Assembly (NCBI GenBank): GCA_934169745.1
Contig: CAKPOE010000001.1
Coordinates: forward strand, 200,856-264,855
Origin: an uncultured Clostridia bacterium
Lineage (GTDB): Bacteria; Bacillota; Clostridia; TANB77; UBA1234
Length of the DNA: 64,000 nucleotides
Direction: 5' to 3'
In this document: piece by piece, positions 1,069 to 64,000 of the stretch
Layout of the letters: every line of letters begins with the position of its first letter
How positions within the stretch are numbered: the first letter of the stretch is position 1
The notes under the pieces: model-generated
Told to the model about the DNA's origin: nothing
Database searches by the model: none
The model's input: only the letters and a program-made list of their open reading frames with translations
Program-made: the position numbers and the translations under genes

Positions 1069-2340
1069 ATGCAAAAGAAAAGAAATCAATATAAACAAAA
1101 TGTAATTTTTGTTATTTTATCGATTTTAATAATTTTACTTGTAATGTTTCTAATTAGAGTAATTGGACTGCTGAAGAAACCAACACTAACAACGATAGTA
1201 AAGAATGGTGAACTGACGAAATATGAGGAAGTTGTTGGGTACGTGATAAGAGATGAAGAAATTGTTGATACGAGTGCATATAGTGGAATTGTAAATACAA
1301 CAATCTCCGATGGAAATCGTGTTGCAAATGGAGGAACAATTCTTTCTTATGTTTCAAATACTGAGAAAAAATTAGTGAAAAAAATATCTGATTTAGATGC
1401 AAAAATACAAGAAACAATGGATAACCAACAAAATATTTTTGACTATAATAGCGATGTTAAAAATATTGAATCAGAAATAAAAACTAATTTATATGAAGCA
1501 GTAAAAGCAAGGAAAGATGTATATTCTGCTCATGAATACAAAACGACTATAAATCAACTTATTCAGAAGAAGGCTAAGATCGTTGGTGATTTAAGTCCTG
1601 CCGGTTCAAAACTAAAGGAACTTATAGAAGAAAGACTTGGATATGAAAAAGATTTAAATGGTGCTAAGCAGATTTTAAAATCTCCCAAGGCAGGAATGGT
1701 TTCTTATAGGGTGGACGGTTATGAAAATGTTTTGACACCAGATTGTTTATCAAGTTTAACAATAAAAGAATTAGAAAAGTTAAAAGTGAATATGGGTCAA
1801 ATAATTCCTATTGATACTTCAAAAGTGAAGATTATAGATAATTTTTATTGTTACATAGCAATTCCAACAAATTCAAGTGAAGGAAAGTCAGCACAGTTAA
1901 ATGATAAGATAAGATTGAGGTTTGACAATACGAATGATGATTTAGTCTCTGCAACAGTCGAGTATATATCTGATGAAGAAAATACTAGACTCATAATTGT
2001 AAAAATAACTTCTAATGTTGAAGAACTTATAAAATATAGAAAAATAAATCTTGATGTTGTTTGGTGGCGAGATACTGGACTAAAAGTTCCAAATGATGCT
2101 ATAAGGTATACTGACATAAAAAATGAGAAAACGGGAGAGGTCATCAAGAATGTTGCAACTGTTACAATTCAAAAATCATCATATACTGAAAGTGTTTGGG
2201 TAAAAGTAATAAGACAAGCAAATACAGCTTCCATAATAGAAAATTATACAGATGAAGAATTACTAGAAATGGGAGTAAGCGAAGATGTAGTAAATAATAG
2301 GTCAACAATAAAATTGTATAATGATGTTGTTTTAAACTAA
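1069..2340 (+). CDS. hypothetical membrane-anchored coiled-coil protein (HlyD/membrane-fusion-like)
   Basis: 423 aa with an N-terminal TM helix, a long coiled-coil segment and beta-rich C-terminus. No catalytic motif recognised. Confidence 0.4.
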   Translation: MQKKRNQYKQNVIFVILSILIILLVMFLIRVIGLLKKPTLTTIVKNGELTKYEEVVGYVIRDEEIVDTSAYSGIVNTTISDGNRVANGGTILSYVSNTEKKLVKKISDLDAKIQETMDNQQNIFDYNSDVKNIESEIKTNLYEAVKARKDVYSAHEYKTTINQLIQKKAKIVGDLSPAGSKLKELIEERLGYEKDLNGAKQILKSPKAGMVSYRVDGYENVLTPDCLSSLTIKELEKLKVNMGQIIPIDTSKVKIIDNFYCYIAIPTNSSEGKSAQLNDKIRLRFDNTNDDLVSATVEYISDEENTRLIIVKITSNVEELIKYRKINLDVVWWRDTGLKVPNDAIRYTDIKNEKTGEVIKNVATVTIQKSSYTESVWVKVIRQANTASIIENYTDEELLEMGVSEDVVNNRSTIKLYNDVVLN

Positions 2341-2467
2341 TGTTACAGGAATGTTACGAAAATATTAAAAAAAAATTACAACCTTAGTATTTGTTGACTT
2401 TACAGGAAAAAAATATAAAATAGAATTATACAAAAGATGAGAAAGTTATTCAGGGAGGTCTAAATTA

Positions 2468-2920
2468 ATGGGTAATAAATTTGTTAACAAAATCTGGAAT
2501 TTGCTTGGCGTTGAGAATGAGGAAGATGTTGAAGATTACAATGATGGAGAGTTAAATTACGATACAGAAGAAAAAGAATATACAGCACCACTTTCTAATA
2601 AGAAGACTAAAGTTGTAGGAATGCCAGGTGTTCCACAGGTGAAAGTCATTATCTCGCAACCTAACACTTTTGAGCAATCAGAGGAAATATGCGAGCACCT
2701 TAAAGAAAAGAAGTCTGTTATAGTTAATTTAGAATATGTAAATAAAGATGTTGCTAGAAGAATAATTGATTTTATTAGTGGAGCAGTATATGCTTTGGAT
2801 GGAAATATTCAAAAGATTTCTAATTCGATTTTCTTAATAGCACCATTTAATTATGAAATTACAAATGAAGTATTAAAAGAAGATATAAAAAATAAGTTAT
2901 CTGTATCATGGATAAAATAA
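2468..2920 (+). CDS. sepF: cell division protein SepF
   Basis: 150 aa. The conserved SepF/DUF552 core (VVNLEYVNKDVARRIIDFISGAVYALDGNIQKIS) is present and divIVA lies downstream. Confidence 0.85.
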   Translation: MGNKFVNKIWNLLGVENEEDVEDYNDGELNYDTEEKEYTAPLSNKKTKVVGMPGVPQVKVIISQPNTFEQSEEICEHLKEKKSVIVNLEYVNKDVARRIIDFISGAVYALDGNIQKISNSIFLIAPFNYEITNEVLKEDIKNKLSVSWIK

Positions 2921-2937
2921 GGAAGTAGGAGGTTTGT

Positions 2938-3393
2938 ATGATTACTCCTTTAGATATTGAAAACAAAACTTTTAATAAACAGTTAGTAAATGGATATAGT
3001 ACAGAAGAAGTGCATGAGTTTATGACGGCACTACTTAAAGACTATGAAAAAATTTACAAAGAGAATATTGAATATAAAGATAAGATTGCAGTATTAAATC
3101 AAGGAATTCAGCATTATAAATCAATTGAAGATACACTACAAAATGCTTTGATTGTAGCTCAGGGAACGGCAGATTCTGTAAAACAAAATGCGAAAGCAGA
3201 AGCGGATAATATTGTTAAAGAAGCTGAAATAAATGCTATGAAAGCTGTTGACGATATAAATCAAAAGGCTATAGAGAAGCAGATGCAACTTGATGAGGCA
3301 AAGAAACAATTTGATATTTATAAAGCTAAAATGGAATCATTATTAATTTCACAACTTGAAATACTAAAAGAAATAAACAGAGACCAGGGCTAG
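2938..3393 (+). CDS. divIVA: DivIVA-domain cell division protein
   Basis: 151 aa. N-terminal MITPLDIENKTFNKQLVNGYSTEEVHEFM is the canonical DivIVA domain, followed by coiled coil. Confidence 0.8.
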   Translation: MITPLDIENKTFNKQLVNGYSTEEVHEFMTALLKDYEKIYKENIEYKDKIAVLNQGIQHYKSIEDTLQNALIVAQGTADSVKQNAKAEADNIVKEAEINAMKAVDDINQKAIEKQMQLDEAKKQFDIYKAKMESLLISQLEILKEINRDQG

Positions 3394-3450: not shown

Positions 3451-4221
3451 ATGAAAAAAATATTATTTATAATTTTGAGTATAGTGTTGGCTTTTTCATT
3501 AGTAGCATGTAATACCACAAAAGAGCCAGAAGTTAACCCAAATGATAATCCAAATAAACAGGAGGAAAACGTGAATAATAAATATAAAGATGTTACACAA
3601 AATCCTGTTGTAACAATGACGATGGAAAATGGTGATGTAGTAAAAATAGAGCTTTATCCACAAATAGCACCTCAAACTGTTGAAAATTTTGTTTCATTAG
3701 TTAAAAGTGGTTTCTATGATGGATTAACATTCCATCGTGTAATACCAGGATTTATGGCTCAAGGCGGAGATCCTGAGGGAAACGGAACTGGTGGAGCTAG
3801 CTATGAAATATTTGGTGAATTCAAAGAAAATGGATTTACTAACGAATTATCACACGATGTTGGCGTTATTTCAATGGCAAGAGCACAAGATTACAATTCT
3901 GCAAGTTCTCAATTCTTTATTGTTACCGATGCTCAAGCCAAGAGTAGCTTGGACGGATTATATGCTGGCTTTGGAAAAGTTATAGAAGGAATGGATGCGG
4001 TTTATACGATTGTTAATGCAGATGTAATAAGAAGAGATTATTCTGATGATTTTTATAATGCTTATGTACAAGCGGGACAACAATTAGAAGTTGGAACAGA
4101 TTTGTATGAACAATATATAAAGGAGACAATGGAAATTGACAAACCAGCAACACCACCTGTAATAAAAACAATGACAGTTGAGACGTTTGGCGTTGAGTAT
4201 GATGAGCCAACAAAGTATTAA
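3451..4221 (+). CDS. lipoprotein peptidyl-prolyl cis-trans isomerase (cyclophilin type)
   Basis: Signal peptide with lipobox LVAC. Cyclophilin motif FHRVIPGFMAQGGDPEGNGTGG is present. Confidence 0.85.
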   Translation: MKKILFIILSIVLAFSLVACNTTKEPEVNPNDNPNKQEENVNNKYKDVTQNPVVTMTMENGDVVKIELYPQIAPQTVENFVSLVKSGFYDGLTFHRVIPGFMAQGGDPEGNGTGGASYEIFGEFKENGFTNELSHDVGVISMARAQDYNSASSQFFIVTDAQAKSSLDGLYAGFGKVIEGMDAVYTIVNADVIRRDYSDDFYNAYVQAGQQLEVGTDLYEQYIKETMEIDKPATPPVIKTMTVETFGVEYDEPTKY

Positions 4222-4329: not shown

Positions 4330-4929
4330 ATGTATGCATATATAAAAGGAATTTTAGAATTTAAAGGTAATGATTTTGTTGTTATAGATGTTAATGGAGT
4401 GGGATACAAAGTTTTTACACCTTTAAGTACGATTGAAAAGTTAGGAGATTTGGGTAGTGCAGTTAAAGTACATACACATTTACGTGTTAAAGAAGATGAT
4501 ATGAGTTTGTACGGTTTCTATAGTCAGGAAGAACTTAGAATGTTTGAGTTATTGATTGGCGTTAGTGGAATAGGGGCAAAATCGGCAAATACAATTTTGG
4601 CCAATATAAGCCCATCAAAATTTGCTCTTGCGGTTATAACTGATGATGTAAAAGAACTTACTAAACTTCCTGGTATTGGACTGAAATCTGCCCAAAGAAT
4701 GGTATTAGAACTGAAAGATAAATTAAAAACAGAAGAAACAATTGCAGATGAAAATGTGGAAATTGGACCTATTGTTAAATCTGATAACAATGCACAAGAA
4801 GCTATTTCTGCTTTGCAAGTTTTAGGCTATCCTATTAAGGAAGCAACAAAGGCCGTAACAGCTGTGAAGGCTGATGGAATGAATGTAGAAGAAATAATTA
4901 AGAAGGCATTAGTATATTTTACAAAGTAA
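4330..4929 (+). CDS. ruvA: Holliday junction DNA helicase RuvA
   Basis: MYAYIKG... start with RBS GAGGTGAGTGA. The ORF-track start at 4282 lacks an RBS. RuvA domain I/II signature ELLIGVSGIGAKSANTIL is present. Confidence 0.9.
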   Translation: MYAYIKGILEFKGNDFVVIDVNGVGYKVFTPLSTIEKLGDLGSAVKVHTHLRVKEDDMSLYGFYSQEELRMFELLIGVSGIGAKSANTILANISPSKFALAVITDDVKELTKLPGIGLKSAQRMVLELKDKLKTEETIADENVEIGPIVKSDNNAQEAISALQVLGYPIKEATKAVTAVKADGMNVEEIIKKALVYFTK

Positions 4930-4941
4930 GGAGAATGAGGT

Positions 4942-6189
4942 ATGGAACAACCATTGGCATATAGAATGTCGCCAGAGACGTTGGATGAATATGTGGGACA
5001 AGAACATATAATATCAAAAGATAAAATGTTATATAGATTGATTAAGGCGGACAGATTATCGAGCATTATTTTATGGGGACCTCCTGGCTGCGGAAAAACA
5101 TCACTTGCTAGAGTTATTGCAAAGTCTACTAAAAACAAGTTTGAAAAACTTAATGCAGTGGCAGCAGGTGTTGGTGATATAAAAAAGATAGTAGAGGAAG
5201 CTAAAAATTTGTTTATGAATCCATCTGGAAGAGTAGTACTATTTATTGATGAGATTCACAGATTTAATAAATTGCAACAAGATGCACTTCTTCCTTATGT
5301 TGAAGACGGAACAGTTATACTTATAGGAGCAACTACAGAAAATCCGTACTTTTCTGTTAATAAAGCTCTAATTTCACGTTCTACAGTTTTTATGTTGAAA
5401 CCTTTGACAGAAGAAAATGTTTATACAGTATTAAAAAATGCAATTGAAAATAAGGAAAAAGGTTTGGGCAAATATAATCTACGTGTTGAAGATGATGTAC
5501 TAAAATATATTGCTACGCTTTCTGGCGGTGATGTTAGAGTAGCGTTAAATGCCTTAGAGATTGCTGTACTTACGACTGATATGAATGCAAATGGCGAAAT
5601 AGAAATAACAAAAGAAATAGCAATGGAATGTGTACAGAAAAAAATAGCACAGTTTGATAAAAATGGAGACAGTCATTACGATAATATAAGTGCTTTTATA
5701 AAATCTATGCGTGGAGGCGATACGGACGCGGTACTATTTTATTTGGCACGAGCTTTGTATGCTGGAGAAGACCCTATGTTTTTGGCAAGACGTATAGCTA
5801 TTTGTGCTTCAGAAGATGTCGGAATGGCTAACTCAAATGCTTTAGTTGTTGCTAATGCTGCTATGCAAGCGATTCATCAAATAGGAATGCCAGAAGCAAG
5901 AATCTTGCTGGCACATGCAGCAACTTATGTGGCAAGAAGTCCAAAATCAAATGCGGCGTATTTAGGATTGGATAAGGCTCTTCATGATGTCGAGAATATG
6001 GATACAGGACTAATTCCAATGCATATAAGAAATGCTCCTGCTGAAGGAATGTCAAAAGAAGGTTATGGAGTTGGTTATAAGTATCCTCACGATTATCCAA
6101 ATCATGAAGTCGAACAACAATATTTACCAGACAAGATGGTTGGAACAAAATATTATATACCAGATGAAACAGAAGAAAAATTGAAATAA
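4942..6189 (+). CDS. rarA: replication-associated recombination protein A (RarA/MgsA AAA+ ATPase)
   Basis: 415 aa. Walker A ILWGPPGCGKTSLA, arginine finger DEIHRFNK and C-terminal MHIRNAPAEGMSKEGYGVGYKYPHDYP are RarA-specific and not RuvB-like. Confidence 0.88.
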   Translation: MEQPLAYRMSPETLDEYVGQEHIISKDKMLYRLIKADRLSSIILWGPPGCGKTSLARVIAKSTKNKFEKLNAVAAGVGDIKKIVEEAKNLFMNPSGRVVLFIDEIHRFNKLQQDALLPYVEDGTVILIGATTENPYFSVNKALISRSTVFMLKPLTEENVYTVLKNAIENKEKGLGKYNLRVEDDVLKYIATLSGGDVRVALNALEIAVLTTDMNANGEIEITKEIAMECVQKKIAQFDKNGDSHYDNISAFIKSMRGGDTDAVLFYLARALYAGEDPMFLARRIAICASEDVGMANSNALVVANAAMQAIHQIGMPEARILLAHAATYVARSPKSNAAYLGLDKALHDVENMDTGLIPMHIRNAPAEGMSKEGYGVGYKYPHDYPNHEVEQQYLPDKMVGTKYYIPDETEEKLK

Positions 6190-7178: not shown

Positions 7179-7264
7179 TAATTTGTTAATTATGGGCTGC
7201 CTTTGGCAGCAAATACATAAAATAATCATTGATATTTGAAAATATAAATGTTATCATAATATTC

Positions 7265-7795
7265 AAGTGGTGTGCTATTCTAGTTATTGCTATGGATTGC
7301 GAGGGCGGGCCTAAAAATCCGCTGAAAGGGCATATCGATGAAGTTCTTTAGTCTGGCTCGCGACGCCCAGTCGAGGGTCTTTCTAGGGAGTAAGGTTTAA
7401 GGGCGATCTGCAACGGCATGTAGGCGTTGACCCTTCTACCGTGGAGACATATAGTATTTTGTACTATATGATAAACCTGCAAGGCCAATACTATAGTATC
7501 TGGTACACAGCGTAGCCTTCCTTGAGTGGTGGTGGCGAATAGAAATTGAAACCATTACTGCAAAAGAGGATAAACAATCATTTTAGCAATGTCAAGGAAA
7601 ACTTCTAGAGCATTCTTATAAAGAGATGTTTTGAGGATTGAGGTGTGGACTAAGTGGTAATCCAGGCTCTCTAACGGTAACGTGGAGATGCTACTTTTAA
7701 AGGGAAACCACTGAGATGGCGATATCTTAGTAAGTAGTAGGGAAATCCTTCTGGACCTAAGCCGCAAAATTTACTCATTACATTACCACTTATTA
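7265..7795 (+). ncRNA. candidate OLE (ornate large extremophilic) RNA
   Basis: ~530 nt with no credible ORF. GC content is far above the local ~30%, with many nested GC helices (e.g. gcgagggcgggcc, ggctcgcgacgcccagtcgagg). Putative sigma-A promoter TTGATA-17-TATCAT at ~7230-7262. A small 4-TM membrane protein (OapA-like) lies immediately downstream and spoIIIA is nearby, matching the known OLE neighbourhood. RNase P and tmRNA motifs are absent. Confidence 0.45.
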
Positions 7796-7814
7796 ATTTT
7801 AAAGGTGAGTGAAA

Positions 7815-9090: not shown

Positions 9091-9229
9091 ATTATTGTAG
9101 GGTCATTAGTGACCCTACAGTTAATGCTTTTTCATATGATAAATCTTTAATTTTCAGTTTTCTTGTCGATGAGTTTTTGTTCTATTTTTGAATATTTTTT
9201 CATATATATGTATTAGAGGTGATTGGAGT

Positions 9230-11264: not shown

Positions 11265-12383
11265 GTGATATTTATTAAGAAACTTTTTTTAATCACGATA
11301 ATATTCCTTCTCTTATTTAATCAAACTTACGCGGTTGATCTAACAGAGTTTACTTCGGAAATAAAAAAATATAGTAATGAATATTTTCCGGAACTAAGTG
11401 ATGATAATTTGCTAACAGCAATGTCTAGTGCAAGTAATAGTTTGAATACAGAGACTTTTATAAAAAGAATTTTGGGTAGCATAACAAAAGAATTTAGAAA
11501 CAATATTTCACTTATATTTAAAGTTATAGGTATAGCTATTTTGTGTAGTATATTGAAAAACATTCAATCAAACTTAGGGGAGTCAGGAATAAGTGAAATA
11601 GCTTTTTATGTTTGTTACATACTAATTGTGGTTTTAATTATGACATCATTTACTAATATAATAAATGTTTGTAAATCAACTATAGTAAAGCTAAGTGACT
11701 TTATGAAAGTATTGATTCCAGTAGTTATAAGTTTAATGTTAGTTACAGGAAATATAGCAACAGTAGCTGTTGTGGAACCAATATTGTTATCAATGATTTC
11801 AGTAATTACAGCATTACTTTCTAATTTTGTAATACCTGCGATTTTTATATCAACTATTATAAACATTATTAGTAATATGTCAGAACATGTTAATGTAAAA
11901 AAGATTGGCGAAACACTTAGAAAATGTTCGCTTTGGTGTATGGAAATTGCTTTAATAATATTTGTGGGTGTCCTGTCGTTAGAAGGAACGTTATCTGCAA
12001 ATGTTGATGGAATAACGGCAAAAACTGCAAAAGCGGTGGTATCTAGTGCTGTACCTGTTGTTGGAAAACTTTTAGGAGATACAGTAGATAGTGTTATAGG
12101 AGGAATGACGATTACCAAAAATGCTTTGGGAACAGTTGGGGTAATTGTGGTTGTGGCGATTACAATTCTCCCTCTTATAAAAACTCTAATACTAATGTTT
12201 ACCTTCAATGTTGCATCAGCACTAGTGGAGCCGATAGCCGATGGAAGAATTGTAAAGTGTATGTCCGGAATAGGTGACTCTATAAAAATCTTGTTCGCTA
12301 TTATGGCTACGATTACTTTTCTTTTTATTATTGCAATAACACTTATAATTAAAGTTACTAATTTTTCGATTATGTATAGATAA
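11265..12383 (+). CDS. spoIIIAE: stage III sporulation protein AE
   Basis: 372 aa, signal peptide plus polytopic membrane domain, GTG start with RBS GAGGGAG. Confidence 0.8.
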   Translation: MIFIKKLFLITIIFLLLFNQTYAVDLTEFTSEIKKYSNEYFPELSDDNLLTAMSSASNSLNTETFIKRILGSITKEFRNNISLIFKVIGIAILCSILKNIQSNLGESGISEIAFYVCYILIVVLIMTSFTNIINVCKSTIVKLSDFMKVLIPVVISLMLVTGNIATVAVVEPILLSMISVITALLSNFVIPAIFISTIINIISNMSEHVNVKKIGETLRKCSLWCMEIALIIFVGVLSLEGTLSANVDGITAKTAKAVVSSAVPVVGKLLGDTVDSVIGGMTITKNALGTVGVIVVVAITILPLIKTLILMFTFNVASALVEPIADGRIVKCMSGIGDSIKILFAIMATITFLFIIAITLIIKVTNFSIMYR

Positions 12384-12947: not shown

Positions 12948-13509
12948 ATGAATAAGCTGATAGAAAAATTTGGTTTTGGTAATCAAAAAAGATTAATTGA
13001 AAATATAGTAATATTTATAATACTACTTGTCATACTTATGATAGTGATAAATGGTTTTGGAACAGTTGAGGAAAAAAGTGAAACTATTCCAACAGCCATA
13101 ATTAATGAAAACAAAAAAACAGATGATTTAGAGGAAAAGTTAGAAAAGATACTTAGCATGATTGACGGAGTGCGGAAAAGCAAATGTAATGATATCGTAT
13201 GCTTCTACAATCACAGAAGTTCCACTTTATGATACAAAGGAAAACGTGACAGTTACTGAGGAAAAAGATAAAGAAGGTGGTACAAGGAAAACAGAACAAA
13301 CAAGCAAAGAAAAAAGCGTTATATTTGAGGAAAATAATAATTCAAAATCTCTTGCTATAAAAGAAAAAGAAATGCCTAAAATCGTTGGCGTAATTGTTGT
13401 TGCAGACGGTGCGGGTAACATTAAGGTGAAAGAATGTATAATAAATGCTGTTTCGGCTGTGGTTGATGTACCTTCGCACCGAATACAAGTATTTTCAAAA
13501 CAAAAATAA
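12948..13509 (+). pseudogene. spoIIIAG: stage III sporulation protein AG (SpoIIIAG ring protein) interrupted by a +1 frameshift at ~13176-13179
   Basis: The N-terminal TM part is in frame 0 to ...SMIDGVRK. The C-terminal ring domain (ANVMISYASTITEV...KEGGTRK...GVIVVADGAGNIKVKECIINAVSAVVDVPSHRIQVF) is in frame 1. Deleting one A from ggAAAAg (13176-13179) fuses them into a protein colinear with B. subtilis SpoIIIAG. Confidence 0.8.
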
Positions 13510-13522
13510 TGGAGGTATTTAT

Positions 13523-14092
13523 ATGGGAGGAATTACATTTAAGGTTATAAAGAAAAATCAAATTTTGATTGTAGCAGTTTCGTTAATGCTTGTCGTTGCT
13601 GGATACTTGAACTATCAATATGATCCTAATTCTGTATATGATGTTGAACTAACAGGGATAATTGAAGATCCAGGAGACGCAATATATGTAAGTACTCCAA
13701 ACGTCGAAACCAACATTGATGCTTTAGAAGTTTCAAGCAATTCTGTTGAAGACTATTTTATACAAAGTAAGATAGAAAGAACAAACGCATATGCCGAACA
13801 AGTTGAAATATATGAAAAAATGATTGAAAATCCAAGTGTTGCTGAAGAACAGAAAAATATAGCACAGGAGCAAATAAGAAAAATAAATAGCGAAAGGGAT
13901 GCAATAATAATATCGGAAAATTTGATAAAACTTAAAGGGTATGAAAATATTTTGGTTATGGTAAATGATAATAGCATAAATGTAGTGATACAGGAAAAAG
14001 AATTAACAAGTAAACAAATAGCTCAAATCCAAAATATAGTAATGCATGAATTCGATACAGATGTTGAGAAAATACATATAACAGTAAAATAA
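13523..14092 (+). CDS. spoIIIAH: stage III sporulation protein AH
   Basis: Start MGGITFKV with RBS GGAGG. N-terminal TM. C-terminal ...LIKLKGYENILVMVNDNSINVVIQ... matches SpoIIIAH (YscJ/FliF-like domain). Confidence 0.8.
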   Translation: MGGITFKVIKKNQILIVAVSLMLVVAGYLNYQYDPNSVYDVELTGIIEDPGDAIYVSTPNVETNIDALEVSSNSVEDYFIQSKIERTNAYAEQVEIYEKMIENPSVAEEQKNIAQEQIRKINSERDAIIISENLIKLKGYENILVMVNDNSINVVIQEKELTSKQIAQIQNIVMHEFDTDVEKIHITVK

Positions 14093-14160
14093 GTATTGCT
14101 TTTTGTTTTTAGGTATGATACATATAAGTTGAAAATATATTTATAGGAGGTAGGCTTGCA

Positions 14161-14667
14161 ATGGCTACAAGGCAGGAAGAACGGTATCCTGGTGTAAATC
14201 ATGTAAGTGATTTACGGCGTTTCCTTAGGGGAAAAGTCCGGCACATGAATGAGCTTTTGGCCACTTGTAAGGCTAAAGATGAAAAGAAGGTCAAAAGCTA
14301 CATTTCGATGGTGACCGAGATTTTGGCACTTGACTACTTTAAGAAAGACATCAATGTTTACACGTTGATGAAGTGCCTTAAAGCAGAAACCTTTGACATC
14401 GATGAAACTTCTAATGTTATCAAGGAAGAGATCAAAGAACTTGATAGACAGATAGAAGAAAAGCAAATGGAGCTTTGTGAAGAAGAATACTTAATTCCTG
14501 ACGAGCAAAAAGATTTCTTGGAAGCTCGGAGGCATTCTGTAGCAGCTCTTAGGTTGAAGAGATATCAACTTGATGAATATCTCCATTGCTTGGGAAGAGA
14601 GAAAAATTTGCTTCATAATCTCAAAGGTATCATCTGTAGGCCGGAAGGATTCTTTAGTAAGCTGTAA
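14161..14667 (+). CDS. orphan hypothetical protein with atypical (GC-richer) codon usage
   Basis: 168 aa, highly charged and predicted helical, no recognisable motif. ~40-45% GC versus ~30% for flanking genes. Good RBS TAGGAGGTAG. Confidence 0.5.
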   Translation: MATRQEERYPGVNHVSDLRRFLRGKVRHMNELLATCKAKDEKKVKSYISMVTEILALDYFKKDINVYTLMKCLKAETFDIDETSNVIKEEIKELDRQIEEKQMELCEEEYLIPDEQKDFLEARRHSVAALRLKRYQLDEYLHCLGREKNLLHNLKGIICRPEGFFSKL

Positions 14668-14680
14668 CCTACCATATAAA

Positions 14681-14712
14681 ACTCTAGCGCTAATGTGCTA
14701 GAGTTTTTTTGA
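14681..14712 (+). terminator. rho-independent terminator
   Basis: ctctagcgc-taatgt-gctagag followed by TTTTTTT. Confidence 0.65.
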
Positions 14713-14735
14713 AACAATTACAGCACAGACAAAAG

Positions 14736-14809
14736 AATGAACAACTTTCTGGCAGCCACTTTTTCGTTCAAAAATGAACGATTTTCCGGCAGCCACTTTT
14801 TCGTTCATT
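14736..14809 (+). repeat. tandem direct repeat, 2 x 37 nt (aaTGAACnnyTTTCyGGCAGCCACTTTTTCGTTCAww)
   Basis: Units 14736-14772 and 14773-14809 are ~86% identical. Each unit is bounded by the inverted hexamers tgaacg/cgttca and can fold as a hairpin. Confidence 0.7.
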
Positions 14810-14917
14810 TTTTCATCGGTGTACAATCAGTTACAAGCGTTGTAGGGCGCGGACACTGTACCGCGCCAACTGACTGAAAAAGGCAAATAAATTACTGTAA
14901 GTGCAACAAACTCTGTA

Positions 14918-14948
14918 GGTGTCGCTGAAGGCAGCGACACCTACAAGT
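14918..14948 (+). other. perfect 13-bp GC-rich hairpin (gtaggtgtcgctg-aagg-cagcgacacctac); a second 7-bp GC hairpin lies at 14847-14870
   Basis: Read directly from sequence. Neither hairpin is followed by a U-tract, so they are not classic terminators. Confidence 0.6.
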
Positions 14949-15037
14949 CTTCAACTCTGATTACTATAGGTTGCTGATTTTAATAAAATTAAATTCAAAT
15001 TAAAATTCTCGAATTCCAGCAAAAATGCAAAAAAGGC

Positions 15038-15066
15038 TTGTAATTGCTGCTATACCGTGATATAAT
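15038..15066 (+). promoter_or_regulatory. putative sigma-A promoter of rpsB-tsf (TTGTAA-17-TATAAT)
   Basis: Sequence match and spacing; located ~125 nt upstream of rpsB. Confidence 0.4.
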
Positions 15067-15191
15067 AACGCAGTGTGTAAACACAAATCCACATGCGATT
15101 CTAGTAGAATGCCGTGTGCCTCTAAGTATAGAGGTGGTTTTCTATATTGATGGGTTGCAGAGGAAAAACAAAAAACAAGGAGGAATTTTAA

Positions 15192-15923
15192 ATGTCAGTA
15201 GTTGCTATGAAACAATTATTGGAAGCAGGTGTTCATTTTGGACATCAAACAAGAAGATGGGATCCTAGAATGGCTCCATATATCTTCACACAAAGAAACG
15301 GAATCTATATAATAGATTTACAAAAAACTTGCAAAAAGATCGATGAAGCATATGCAGAATTAAAGAAAATCATCGATGAAGGAAAGACTGTTATCTTTGT
15401 TGGAACAAAGAAACAAGCTCAAGAATGCGTTAAAGAAGAAGCTGAAAGATGTGGTATGTACTACGTAAACGAAAGATGGTTAGGTGGTATGCTTACAAAC
15501 TTCAATACAATGCGTACAAGAGTTAACAGACTTAAACAATTAGAAGCTATGGAAACAGATGGAACATTCGATGTTCTTCCAAAGAAAGAAGTAGCTGAAT
15601 TAAAGAAGGAAAGAGAAAAGTTAGAGAAAAACTTAGGTGGAGTTAAAGAAATGACAGAGCTTCCAGGAGCTATGTTTGTTGTAGATCCTAAGAAGGAAAG
15701 AATTGCTATACTAGAAGCAAAGAAATTAGGAATTCCAGTATTTGGACTAGTTGATACAAACTGTAATCCAGAAGACGTTGATTACGTTATCCCTGGAAAT
15801 GATGATGCTATAAGAGCTATTAAATTGATTATTGAAGCTATGGCAAACGCAGTTATTGAATCAAAACAAGGTGAATCTTTAGAAAAAGCTGAAGCCGAAG
15901 AAGAAGAAACTGTACAAGAATAA
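15192..15923 (+). CDS. rpsB: 30S ribosomal protein S2
   Basis: 243 aa; [25 protein letters not shown] is the universal S2 N-terminus. Confidence 0.95.
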
Positions 15924-24183: not shown

Positions 24184-24412
24184 ATACGTAAAATTGAAAT
24201 AAACACTGTAGGGTGGCATCATCCATAGTGACCTCTACGGTGTTTATTTATAAGTTTTTGCAAGTTGGTGCAACACACAGTGTCCGCGTATTATAAAAAT
24301 TTGTGACAAAAGTAGTGGAAAATCTTTGATTTATAGCTTTGTTGAGTGTCTAGTATTTTTATTCTGTTTTAAAATTACCCATTAAATTTGAATAATAAAG
24401 GAGAGATTTTTT

Positions 24413-46185: not shown

Positions 46186-46424
46186 GTAAAGACGTTGAGC
46201 AAGAGGAGTAGATTTTTGAGGCTTGATAGAGAGGAAAAGTCGTTGGCTGAAAGCTTTTCTTAAGTTAGAAAATTGAACGTAGCTTGTGAGTCTCAATACT
46301 GAACTAAGAGTAAGTGTTGACGTATGCATGCGTTAAATGTGCTAAGGCAATGATTTTAAATCATTGTAAATTAAGGTGGTACCACGACAGACTCGTCCTT
46401 TGGATTGATGTCTGTCTTTTTTAT
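46186..46424 (+). promoter_or_regulatory. T-box riboswitch leader (valine specifier GUC) with terminator
   Basis: AGAGAGG box, specifier region gaaaaGUCg, T-box sequence aattaaGGTGGTACCacg (46369-46386), terminator gacagac...gtctgtc+TTTTTT (46386-46424). Sits upstream of valS. Confidence 0.8.
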
Positions 46425-53227: not shown

Positions 53228-53430
53228 AATTCGGGAGCTGTCGTAGAGACGGCTCTTTTTGCATTTTGTTATATATTGTGTATAACATAGGTATAATAAA
53301 AATTCAAAAACACATACAATGGATGAGATGAAAGAGGAGTTGGGGGTGTAAATGAAGTATAGAGTTCTATTTACAGATAATTAAAACCCTACAGCCGTTT
53401 GAAACTGTAGGGTTTGTAATTTGTATAAAT

Positions 53431-57527: not shown

Positions 57528-57617
57528 AATTTAAATAAGTAAGGGTCGCCAAGATTAAAGTGGCGACCCTTACAAGATAATATTAAAATGAATTCTTGAT
57601 ATTTAGCTTAAAAAATA

Positions 57618-62970: not shown

Positions 62971-63046
<76 letters not shown>

Positions 63047-63301
63047 ATAACGAATCTGTTCGAACTTTTATAAAACAGATTGATACAAAAATCATTCAGA
63101 AATGGATGATTTTTTTGTTGCCAAAAATATCATCCAAAATAAAAATGGCTTTTTAGCCAAGTAGGGAAGGATGGCGTTTGTAATGAAGGTAATTAAGCAA
63201 GAAATTGTATTTGATGTATCAAGAAAAATTAAAACTACTGAAGAATTGCAGAAAACGAATAAGAGTAGAAATGATAAAATTAGATAGGAGGTCAAAATAT
63301 T

Positions 63302-63595
63302 GTGATAAATGAACAAACAAATAAAATGATTGATGTTATAAGAACTATGAGTGAAAAAGACAAGCTAAGACTAGCAATATGCTTAGCTGATAGCAGTATG
63401 TCAAGCATTAGCTATGACAAAAAAGAAATGCTAAAGATTGCAGATACTAGATTGCGAGAAATTGATGAAGAATATAGGACAACGATTGTAAATATGGCGA
63501 AGTATGGTACAATTCTTCTCACAATTGCTATGATAATAGAATTGCCATTAGAAGAACAAAATCAAATTGAAATGTATTTATGCAATAAAATGTAA
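63302..63595 (+). CDS. hypothetical small protein
   Basis: 97 aa, GTG start 9 nt after GGAGGT, no recognisable motif. Confidence 0.35.
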   Translation: MINEQTNKMIDVIRTMSEKDKLRLAICLADSSMSSISYDKKEMLKIADTRLREIDEEYRTTIVNMAKYGTILLTIAMIIELPLEEQNQIEMYLCNKM

Positions 63596-63599
63596 AAGA

Positions 63600-63633
63600 A
63601 AAACTCTCCACCTGTGCAGGCGGAGAGAAAAAC
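63600..63633. terminator. bidirectional terminator
   Basis: ctctccacc-tgtgc-aggcggagag flanked by A/T runs, between convergent genes. Confidence 0.55.
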
Positions 63634-64000
63634 TCAAGGTTTTATTTCTTTCCAGTTCCATCTAGAAGTTCTATTGACACTGTAACGTATAGTGCCGTTG
63701 TTCTCCAAAATGGTGATTGCCTTTTCTGGAAAGTAATACGCCCTATAGTCATAGTCCACAGCTTCCATACACGCCCCTAAAATGCGATCTGCTCCATAGT
63801 CGGTATTAAGTATTACCCGACCATTATGCTGAAATTCTTCCACTATTTTATTTTTCAGCATCTTTGCAAATCGTTTCTTTTCATCTAGAGTTGATTTTTT
63901 AGGAACAACGTACTCGCGGTTAACCGGAGACTTACCGTAAAATTCTGCATAATCCTCTTCACAGAATAGTAGTCCCATCCACCATGCTGCAATGTACCTA
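63634..64000 (-). CDS. hypothetical protein, 3' portion (open to window edge)
   Basis: The frame stays open upstream of the annotated Met to the window end; no motif recognised. Confidence 0.35.
   Translation of the reverse strand, partial: RYIAAWWMGLLFCEEDYAEFYGKSPVNREYVVPKKSTLDEKKRFAKMLKNKIVEEFQHNGRVILNTDYGADRILGACMEAVDYDYRAYYFPEKAITILENNGTIRYSVNRTSRWNWKEIKP

Follow-up and report, generated by a model that had tools for sequence, protein, structure and literature searches.

Type III toxin–antitoxin (TA) families carry repeats of 31–62 nt in 1.9–5.6 copies (Table 2 of that survey) together with a toxin of 168 aa on average, and by the published criteria the array comes first, then a terminator and then the toxin gene, one reversed locus having been noted (PMC3401426). 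The locus described here lies between spoIIIAH and rpsB in a 64,000-nucleotide stretch of DNA from an uncultured Clostridia bacterium, the whole of which is called the window. It holds a 168-aa open reading frame (ORF), named here gene X, followed by a terminator (T1), a 37-nt tandem repeat and two GC-rich hairpins (A and B), and an earlier note had likened it to type III TA loci. The window was compared with loci L001 to L019, which are related contigs and metagenome stretches; 15 related contigs were fetched. The reading proposed, with a probability of about 0.5 for the whole, is that of a normal transcription unit of the chromosome with a spacer unusually rich in hairpins behind it, in which the repeat arose by slippage. 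That X is a conserved chromosomal gene, and neither a TA component nor an island, is very likely.

Like ToxIN, CptIN and TenpIN, the region combines repeats of ~37 nt in ~2 copies with a gene for ~170 aa and a terminator between them (PMC3401426). Repeat length and copy number (37 nt, 1.9) fell within the type III range and were the only criteria in common, protein size also agreeing with published values. In type III systems the toxin processes the repeat RNA, which binds it as a pseudoknot. A module of this kind, in which the repeats would be transcribed, cut into units and bind or neutralise X, draws some further support from the one known locus with repeats downstream of its toxin (PMC3401426) and from a unit of the same geometry behind a distant X homologue. 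It is nevertheless extremely improbable. As had been remarked from the start, the repeats lie 3' of the ORF, in the order gene, terminator, repeats, the reverse of the type III arrangement, and they come after a strong terminator with no convincing promoter of their own. The judgement that the protein is not ToxN-like also held, X being predicted as an all-helical coiled coil, unlike the ToxN/Kid-like endoribonucleases, with no ToxN, AbiQ, CptN or TenpN signal in Pfam, NCBIfam, PADLOC, a PDB profile search or Foldseek. Repeats were absent behind X in L001, L011 (both genes), L013, L014 and L016, five independent lineages, and the TA idea fails because most X homologues lack repeats and a toxin could not survive without its antitoxin. 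Moreover, the locus is a syntenic, housekeeping-style chromosomal site and not a plasmid or defence-island context. The likeness to type III TA loci is one of numbers alone.

Gene X and its protein family

The 168-aa ORF was confirmed on the + strand (Table 1). It had been called an orphan of no recognisable family; the first description was wrong, as unannotated family members were found in protein collections, and the second was right, since nothing beyond coiled-coil noise under the threshold came out of searches of Pfam, NCBIfam, PADLOC, PHROGs and PDB profiles. Six relatives were returned when 5.8 billion proteins were searched by word index, including one at 98% identity in another strain, three 174-aa proteins at 50–52% and one 168-aa protein at 39%. 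An HMMER profile search with X among 1.84 billion representatives yielded 33 proteins at E < 0.001, 0 of them annotated; family members span 91–208 aa, the full-length ones ~155–208 aa. Back-translated X motifs gave 0 confirmed loci in GTDB species genomes, JGI metagenomes and IMG/VR. The X family is rare, unannotated and narrowly distributed, a conserved gene in a small group of AT-rich Clostridia.

Three motifs characterize the family: an N-terminal EER[FY]PG, IPDE, and a C-terminal LKGIIxRPxGFF, the last almost invariant. The AlphaFold2 model of X was all-helical, with a predicted local distance difference test score of 86.5 and helices at residues 15–34, 41–55, 66–109 and 114–159. In this model three short N-terminal helices bear two helices of ~45 residues (66–109 and 114–159) that form an antiparallel hairpin, with IPDE capping the second long helix at the hairpin tip; Foldseek against PDB matched generic coiled coils only (E > 0.3). 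X would thus be a cytoplasmic, all-helical protein, with a small N-terminal helical bundle and a coiled-coil hairpin ending in an acidic IPDE tip, and might serve as an adaptor or regulator, with LKGIIxRPxGFF as its docking peptide for a partner. The only pointer to sporulation is the gene neighbourhood, which suggests such a connection.

Gene neighbourhood and descent

The gene order in the window was spoIIIAH, X, rpsB. Of the 15 contigs fetched, 9 had X immediately behind spoIIIAH, and most of the rest had it just before rpmE. X also stood directly after spoIIIAH in L001–L005 (relatives at 50–52%) and in L008, an independent assembly of the window's species. In L014 and L016–L019 the order was spoIIIAA to spoIIIAH, X, rpmE, DUF1385, prmC and whiA, and the X proteins of the two distant members represented there were at 26–28% local identity (multiple alignment) and 35% global pairwise identity. 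X lay just upstream of rpmE in L006 and L013 (only the rpmE promoter being present in the latter), and L011 carried two tandem paralogues of 189 and 197 aa at 2024–3314, in the order rho, X, X', rpmE, with no spoIIIA there. All spoIIIA-bearing relatives recovered had X at the same site, and the spoIIIAH–X adjacency was kept in 4 lineages. The ancestral order was probably spoIIIAH–X–rpmE, broken later on different sides. No paper was found linking spoIIIAH with rpmE or with gene X.

Identities of SpoIIIAE, SpoIIIAH and X were 97, 96 and 87% for L002–L004, 93, 93 and 77% for a further pair at intermediate distance, 73, 80 and 52% between the window and L001, and 54, 53 and 35% between the window and L014. 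Because X identity tracks that of its neighbours, the alignments point to vertical inheritance, with X evolving about twice as fast as the genes around it. The notions of an insertion-type island and of a mobile-element remnant did not survive this comparison, since relatives hold the same gene in the same place; X is a syntenic gene (spoIIIAH, then X, then rpmE or rpsB) down to ~25–35% identity. Likewise, no phage or plasmid similarity was found for the whole of 14100–15040 or for hairpin B, no recombinase or tRNA at the locus, and no relatives of X in IMG/VR.

Other observations concerned the same neighbourhood. In L014 a direct repeat of ~95 nt (~88% identity), containing the hairpin GCGTGAGATTTTC...GAAAACTCACG, flanks X on both sides (3975–4085 and 4880–4980), and a Phd/ParE toxin–antitoxin pair is inserted between X and rpmE (5100–5643). 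In the window, spoIIIAG is split by a 1-nt frameshift near GVxK/ANVMISY into overlapping ORFs of 94 and 115 aa (12948–13509, + strand); the same split occurs in L008 (3942–4503), and L001 and L016 have a single ORF of 186–191 aa. The frameshift is probably real, as it is seen in two independent assemblies, and it raises the question of whether the window's species still sporulates.

Codon usage and the message of X

The anomalous composition and codon usage described earlier were genuine. The GC content at third codon positions (GC3) of X was 0.42, the highest among the 66 window ORFs of at least 100 aa, the others averaging 0.215 (sd ~0.03; z = 6.3), and GC at codon positions 1 and 2 was normal. 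The rise in GC over the whole region, 14100–15040, was real as well, at about 38–40% (0.355–0.405 in 200-nt segments) against 0.319 for the 64 kb, but the 45% given for it was never reached. Comparison with relatives, which had been suggested as a check for insertion, cut both ways: the same gene at the same site speaks against an insertion, but the composition was native in none of them. GC3 of X was 0.35–0.41 in L001, L002 and L004, 0.42 in L012 and L014, 0.29 in L016, 0.26 and 0.41 in the L011 paralogues, 0.48 in L006 and 0.53 in L013, a span of 0.26–0.53 compared to 0.10–0.23 for every neighbouring gene; at the first two codon positions the GC content of X was normal. CGG made up 29% of the Arg codons in 11 X genes (36/123, 2–4 per gene; 4/13 in window X), compared to 0/127 in neighbours at four loci and 3/688 (0.4%) in other window ORFs. 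The conserved Arg of EER[FY]PG was encoded by CGG in the window, L001, L002, L004, L006 and L012. The unusual composition characterises the family as a whole; it is nearly confined to synonymous sites and persists in every lineage. Relative to synonymous-codon shuffles, folding of the X mRNA gave negative z-scores in 9/9 genes, from -0.5 to -4.7, the last being that of the window.

Acquisition as a cassette, in which X and the structured repeats would have been inserted after spoIIIAH and the foreign codon usage thus explained, is improbable. Its GC3 and CGG usage do resemble those of a genome of ~42–45% GC, X in L014 has the flanking direct repeats and the adjoining Phd/ParE pair, and between L014 and L016 X identity is only 31%, far under that of its neighbours. 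However, X keeps its position where SpoIIIAE is only ~50% identical and otherwise tracks its neighbours, the locus has no integrase, transposase or tRNA target and no phage, plasmid or IMG/VR matches, the repeat and hairpin B are single-copy in 64 kb, and the anomaly has outlasted the time in which amelioration should erase it. As syntenic members are 24–52% identical and mutation pressure should have erased a foreign signature, we infer that the X message is under continuing selection, or under a continuing bias such as gene conversion. Selection on the message, as opposed to foreign origin, would favour slow translation dependent on tRNA-Arg(CCG), a stable structured mRNA, or both.

Carried further, X would be a developmental or stress regulator gated at the message by CGG, through tRNA-Arg(CCG) availability, and by a GC-rich, structured, hairpin-protected mRNA. 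This extension is decidedly unlikely. It would amount to a mirror image, in an AT-rich genome, of the bldA/TTA switch of Streptomyces, tied to the spoIIIA sporulation locus, and the 37-nt hairpin units that recur behind X would form part of that 3' end, stabilising or regulating the message. No paper was found reporting CGG-codon control in sporulation. An antisense gene was considered as the cause of the high GC3 and rejected, the codon-aligned antisense frame containing 2–12 stops in 8/9 X genes. In L006 that frame is open over all 169 codons of X (70–576), probably as a by-product of avoiding TTA, CTA and TCA codons.

Transcription unit

A promoter architecture of TTGnnn-16/17-TGnTAnnnT, 30–42 nt upstream of the ATG, was found by regular-expression scan in the window, L012, L014, L016 and both L011 paralogues, and X homologues had equivalent GGAGG/AGGAG sites upstream. 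The terminator reported after the ORF was verified: T1 has the GC-containing stem-loop, the U-tract and the closeness to a stop codon expected of an intrinsic terminator. Its stem of 11–13 bp (14678–14707), AAAACUCUAGC(GC)/(GU)GCUAGAGUUUU, is followed by a T-run at 14704–14710 (U7), 11 nt past the stop codon of X. No terminator was found between spoIIIAH and X in the window, and with this gap read-through from spoIIIA into X would be possible. X could be counted as a ninth spoIIIA cistron from its adjacency in 4 lineages, yet it has its own promoter-like site and stands apart from spoIIIA in L011. Overall, X looks like a monocistronic transcription unit of its own, which would be transcribed from a sigma-A-type promoter, with a ribosome-binding site and a strong intrinsic terminator.

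Table 1. Positions of gene X and of the elements around it in the window.
Feature	Position	Strand	Basis and details
Putative sigma-A-type promoter of X	14096..14124	+	Regular-expression scan; extended -10; TTGCTT, 17 nt, TGa TACATA
Ribosome-binding site GGAGG of X	14146..14150	+	Read from sequence
Gene X, 168 aa	14161..14667	+	ORF; homologues; predicted fold
Intrinsic terminator T1 of X	14678..14710	+	Inverted repeat; minimum free energy and centroid structure
Tandem repeat 2 x 37 nt, 80-nt hairpin + U6	14733..14812	+	Repeat searches; folding
Hairpin A	14841..14875	+	Sequence; predicted fold
Hairpin B, perfect 14-bp palindrome	14914..14945		Inverted-repeat search
rpsB promoter, right edge of structured spacer	15038..15066	+	TTGTAA, 17 nt, TG-TATAAT

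The 37-nt tandem repeat

The two tandem 37-nt units described earlier were recovered at 14733–14806, with 89–91% identity between them. Tandem Repeats Finder reported 14736–14807 (1.9 copies, 91% match) with a score of 123, more than any other of the window's 56 arrays, and 0 further copies of the unit were found within 3 mismatches in 64 kb (0 expected). The inverted hexamers said to frame each unit, TGAAC(A/G)...CGTTCA, are present. In register, a unit consists of the 6-nt arm TGAAC(A/G), a 21-nt C-rich spacer ATTTTCCGGCAGCCACTTTTT and the arm CGTTCA, with an AAAA linker between units. As complementary arms are joined by AAAA, the unit junction is an 18-bp palindrome, TCGTTCA-AAAA-TGAACGA, which in RNA makes a 7-bp hairpin followed by AUUUU. 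The GGCAGCC of the spacer is self-complementary save for its central A, which lets the two units fold into one 80-nt hairpin of three tiers. The fold (14732–14813; -30.3 kcal/mol, z = -5.4) has large internal loops and ends in U6, in agreement with the repeat having been called structured.

The array is unstable between strains: strain L007 (98% identical) has perfect units with a different left flank, and the short-read contigs of L007 and L008 both break off inside the array. Behind the X of L006 (39% identical, at another locus) there are three units, with arms GTGATG/CATCAC and a similar spacer. Unit 1 of L006 is the 3' half of the terminator of its own X, and L013 shares the rpmE promoter region of L006 without ~2 x 37 nt at that spot. 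The L006 array is plainly, as read from its sequence, a tandem duplication of the terminator 3' arm, T-run and following hairpin arm. A covariance model built on the 41-nt unit (R1) found no unit behind X in L001, L011, L012, L013, L014 or L016, and in the window gave one weak match behind tRNA-Thr (63099–63140, 24.8 bits), the matched sequence being a terminator that has one arm in excess. When the two-unit architecture was searched as a degenerate DNA pattern, 0 matches came from 185,579 species genomes and from IMG/VR viral contigs; the pattern's sole match in JGI metagenomes (L010) was a chance match inside a GC-rich coding region. These arrays are a caution that terminator-proximal slippage can mimic antitoxin arrays.

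In the proposed reading the repeat was most likely born by slipped-strand duplication of a terminator-proximal hairpin module and, if it acts at all, would serve as a back-up terminator or a 3'-end protector in the X-sense direction. Such a terminator-derived role is tentative, and somewhat doubtful. Since a unit of the same geometry stands behind a homologue as distant as that of L006, some link between the 3' end of X and the repeat may exist.

A DNA operator array is very improbable. It would consist of 18-bp palindromes 37 bp apart that bind a dimeric protein, possibly X, with half-sites and protein having co-evolved. The palindromes are perfect (TCATCAC-AAAA-GTGATGA in L006), and half-sites differ by lineage with the geometry kept, as in co-evolving operator–repressor pairs. 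However, no DNA-binding domain can be recognised in X, a complete palindrome occurs just once in the window, at the unit junction, most X loci have no sites, and those present are downstream of X, ~226 bp before the rpsB -35 in one case and ~25 bp before the rpmE -35 in the other.

Several further candidates were tried and rejected. By eye, against consensus sequences, the units did not fit Spo0A boxes, cre, CodY boxes, parS, ram sites, attC cores or tRNA anticodon loops. An integron cassette was discarded as GTTCAAA and GTTCATT do not fit the GTTRRRY of the R''/R' core (RYYYAAC/GTTRRRY); the L006 arms CATCAC/GTGATG also lack an AAC/GTT core, and a promoter-like site stands before X, whereas the ORF of such a cassette is promoterless. 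Between the loops of the repeat and either the start region of X or T1, only 5–6 nt were complementary, with no covariation with L006. The small ORFs in the repeat (46 and 42 aa) had no ribosome-binding site, family or conservation in L006.

Hairpins A and B and the spacer to rpsB

Both hairpins described earlier exist, with corrected limits. The 7-bp stem of hairpin A, GGCGCGG/CCGCGCC, starts at 14847 as stated but ends at 14868, not 14870; it is preceded by TGTAGG and closed by CAGTT/AACTG. Hairpin B, TGTAGGTGTCGCTG/CAGCGACACCTACA with a 4-nt loop, is indeed a perfect palindrome, but of 14 bp at 14914–14927/14932–14945 and not of 13 bp at 14918–14948. The reported lack of a U-tract in both was confirmed on the + strand; on the - strand hairpin B was flagged as terminator-like. 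Both begin with TGTAGG and share the 5' flank ACAAnCnnTGTAGG, and no other copies of hairpin B were found in 64 kb.

Further GC palindromes with a TGTAGGG or GTAAGGG head are found at 9096–9119, 24207–24240, 53384–53415 and 57539–57573. All four lie 6–16 nt past stop codons, which puts them in terminator position; some are between convergent genes, and several have no clear U-tracts. In total there are five or six TGTAGG-headed palindromes in 64 kb, with mutually unrelated stems, and the enrichment of TGTAGGK was marginal (15 occurrences, 8.0 ± 3.1 expected; 4 of 100 shuffles reached 15). Hairpins A and B can be read from their sequences as terminator-type palindromes that at present serve no gene. 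The rearrangement that put rpsB beside X may have left them behind, and with the other headed palindromes they may form a loose REP-like class (REP, repetitive extragenic palindrome). In L011, the second paralogue is likewise followed by GC hairpins with no U-tracts, GGAGCAC...GTGCTCC and GGCGAA...TTCGCC.

The spacer from 14668 to 15040 had folding z-scores, relative to dinucleotide shuffles, of -8.0 on the + strand and -9.1 on the - strand. The region had no Rfam match at gathering thresholds (whole window scanned), and at E up to 10 only chance-level matches appeared over 14000–15300. The rpsB promoter was the best promoter-like site of the region (10/12 matches, with TG). A succession of four terminator-type hairpins, namely T1, that of the repeat, A and B, would part X from this strong promoter and thereby insulate rpsB. 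Beyond it, the rpsB 5' leader (15073–15191, + strand) contains several hairpins, including a terminator-like stem with a U-run at 15117–15136, and had no Rfam match; from its sequence it could be an S2-responsive attenuator.

Weight of the overall reading

A number of points weigh against the proposed reading. Promoter use, termination and read-through of the X unit are inferred; a stricter promoter scan did not list the window X promoter, the sigma-A site being a consensus match. An adaptor or regulator role for X is guesswork. The mRNA-structure z-scores are weak in several X genes (-0.5 to -1.7), and the control gene tsf reaches -2.5. Between L014 and L016 identities are discordant, with SpoIIIAH at 74%, L31 at 94% and X at 31%, which may reflect the sorting of old paralogues. 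T1 looks efficient already, so that a back-up terminator is not obviously needed, and the window repeat units are unlike the window's own T1. Finally, despite 39% X identity the window and L006 share the 37-nt period, the 27-nt arm offset and the AAAA linker, a geometry that hints at a selected function and that slippage debris leaves unexplained. In this comparison 4 of 6 arm pairs show compensatory double changes, from two independent lineages only, and the arms were paired in 94% of cells compared to 17–56% with the partner slid.

The last observations, with the extreme folding z-scores, would also fit an independent sRNA (small RNA) or structured 3'-untranslated region, in which the repeat hairpin with A and B would work as an RNA in its own right, such as a regulator or protein sponge with loops rich in C, made as its own transcript or by read-through. 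The C-rich spacer keeps its orientation with respect to X, and nothing beyond the small unconserved ORFs suggests coding. An sRNA locus is nevertheless unlikely: even the relaxed Rfam search was negative, the sole promoter-like site is weak (TTGAAA-18-AAGAAT) and its start would fall inside unit 1, and the covariation comes from two lineages only. The element is also missing from most X loci and, as the two-unit pattern, from the 185,579 species genomes and the JGI metagenomes.

The remaining result is an unannotated narrow protein family with a robust codon signature, accompanied by ordinary-looking terminator-derived repeats. The signature, synonymous sites that resist AT pressure in every lineage with CGG concentrated, was not seen described before. 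If codon gating or control through mRNA stability were true, X would give a simple, testable way into the regulation of genes in Clostridia that have been little studied; if gene conversion or transfer had recurred instead, it would make an elegant example for the study of composition. In both cases the X family merits a name and an experiment.

Other features of the window

A full-length OLE (ornate large extremophilic) RNA was found at 7251–7805 (+ strand; 426.6 bits, E = 6e-122), ~3.5 kb upstream of the located spoIIIA genes (spoIIIAE starts at 11265), and a T-box leader at 46186–46403 (+ strand; 128.7 bits). At 62971–63978 the terminator behind a tRNA-Thr(CGU) has its 5' arm in an additional copy, and beyond it comes the sole other GC3 outlier of the window, a 114-aa ORF on the - strand (63634–63978, GC3 0.365). 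This segment may mark where an island begins next to a tRNA gene.

Comparison with known systems

Intrinsic, tandem and fail-safe terminators and 3' stabilising hairpins offer one comparison. T1 is canonical, the repeat forms a long hairpin with U6, the L006 units literally copy a terminator 3' arm and T-run, and GC palindromes of the window come right after stop codons. The locus differs in lacking a U-tract at hairpins A and B on the X-sense strand and in the large internal loops of the repeat hairpin, and it is unusual for four such elements to stand one after another ahead of a single promoter.

REPs are marked by a conserved GTAG head, occur in many dispersed copies of conserved sequence per genome and are associated with a RAYT transposase. 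As in REPs and bacterial interspersed mosaic elements, the window has GC-rich palindromes of 25–35 nt after genes in an AT-rich genome, several starting with (T)GTAGG. Unlike in REPs, the stems differ between copies and the 37-nt unit is confined to a single locus in 64 kb; a RAYT transposase was not seen, though no search aimed at RAYT was made.

In Streptomyces, bldA and the TTA codon exert rare-codon control of development. X is comparable in that a near-unused codon, CGG, is concentrated in a small conserved gene beside a sporulation operon, with one CGG at a conserved position near the 5' end. The case of X differs in being purely a sequence pattern, and in that overall GC3 is raised too, so that CGG is not the sole anomaly.

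Gre/DksA-type secondary-channel factors and the FliJ/SctO stalk proteins are coiled-coil hairpin factors of similar size. X shares with them a length of ~150–170 aa, a long antiparallel coiled-coil finger and a conserved acidic tip (IPDE in X), but has no sequence or Foldseek similarity to them, its best PDB matches being the generic coiled coils mentioned above. The likeness of X to Gre/DksA or FliJ is architectural only, and by analogy may serve as a lead.

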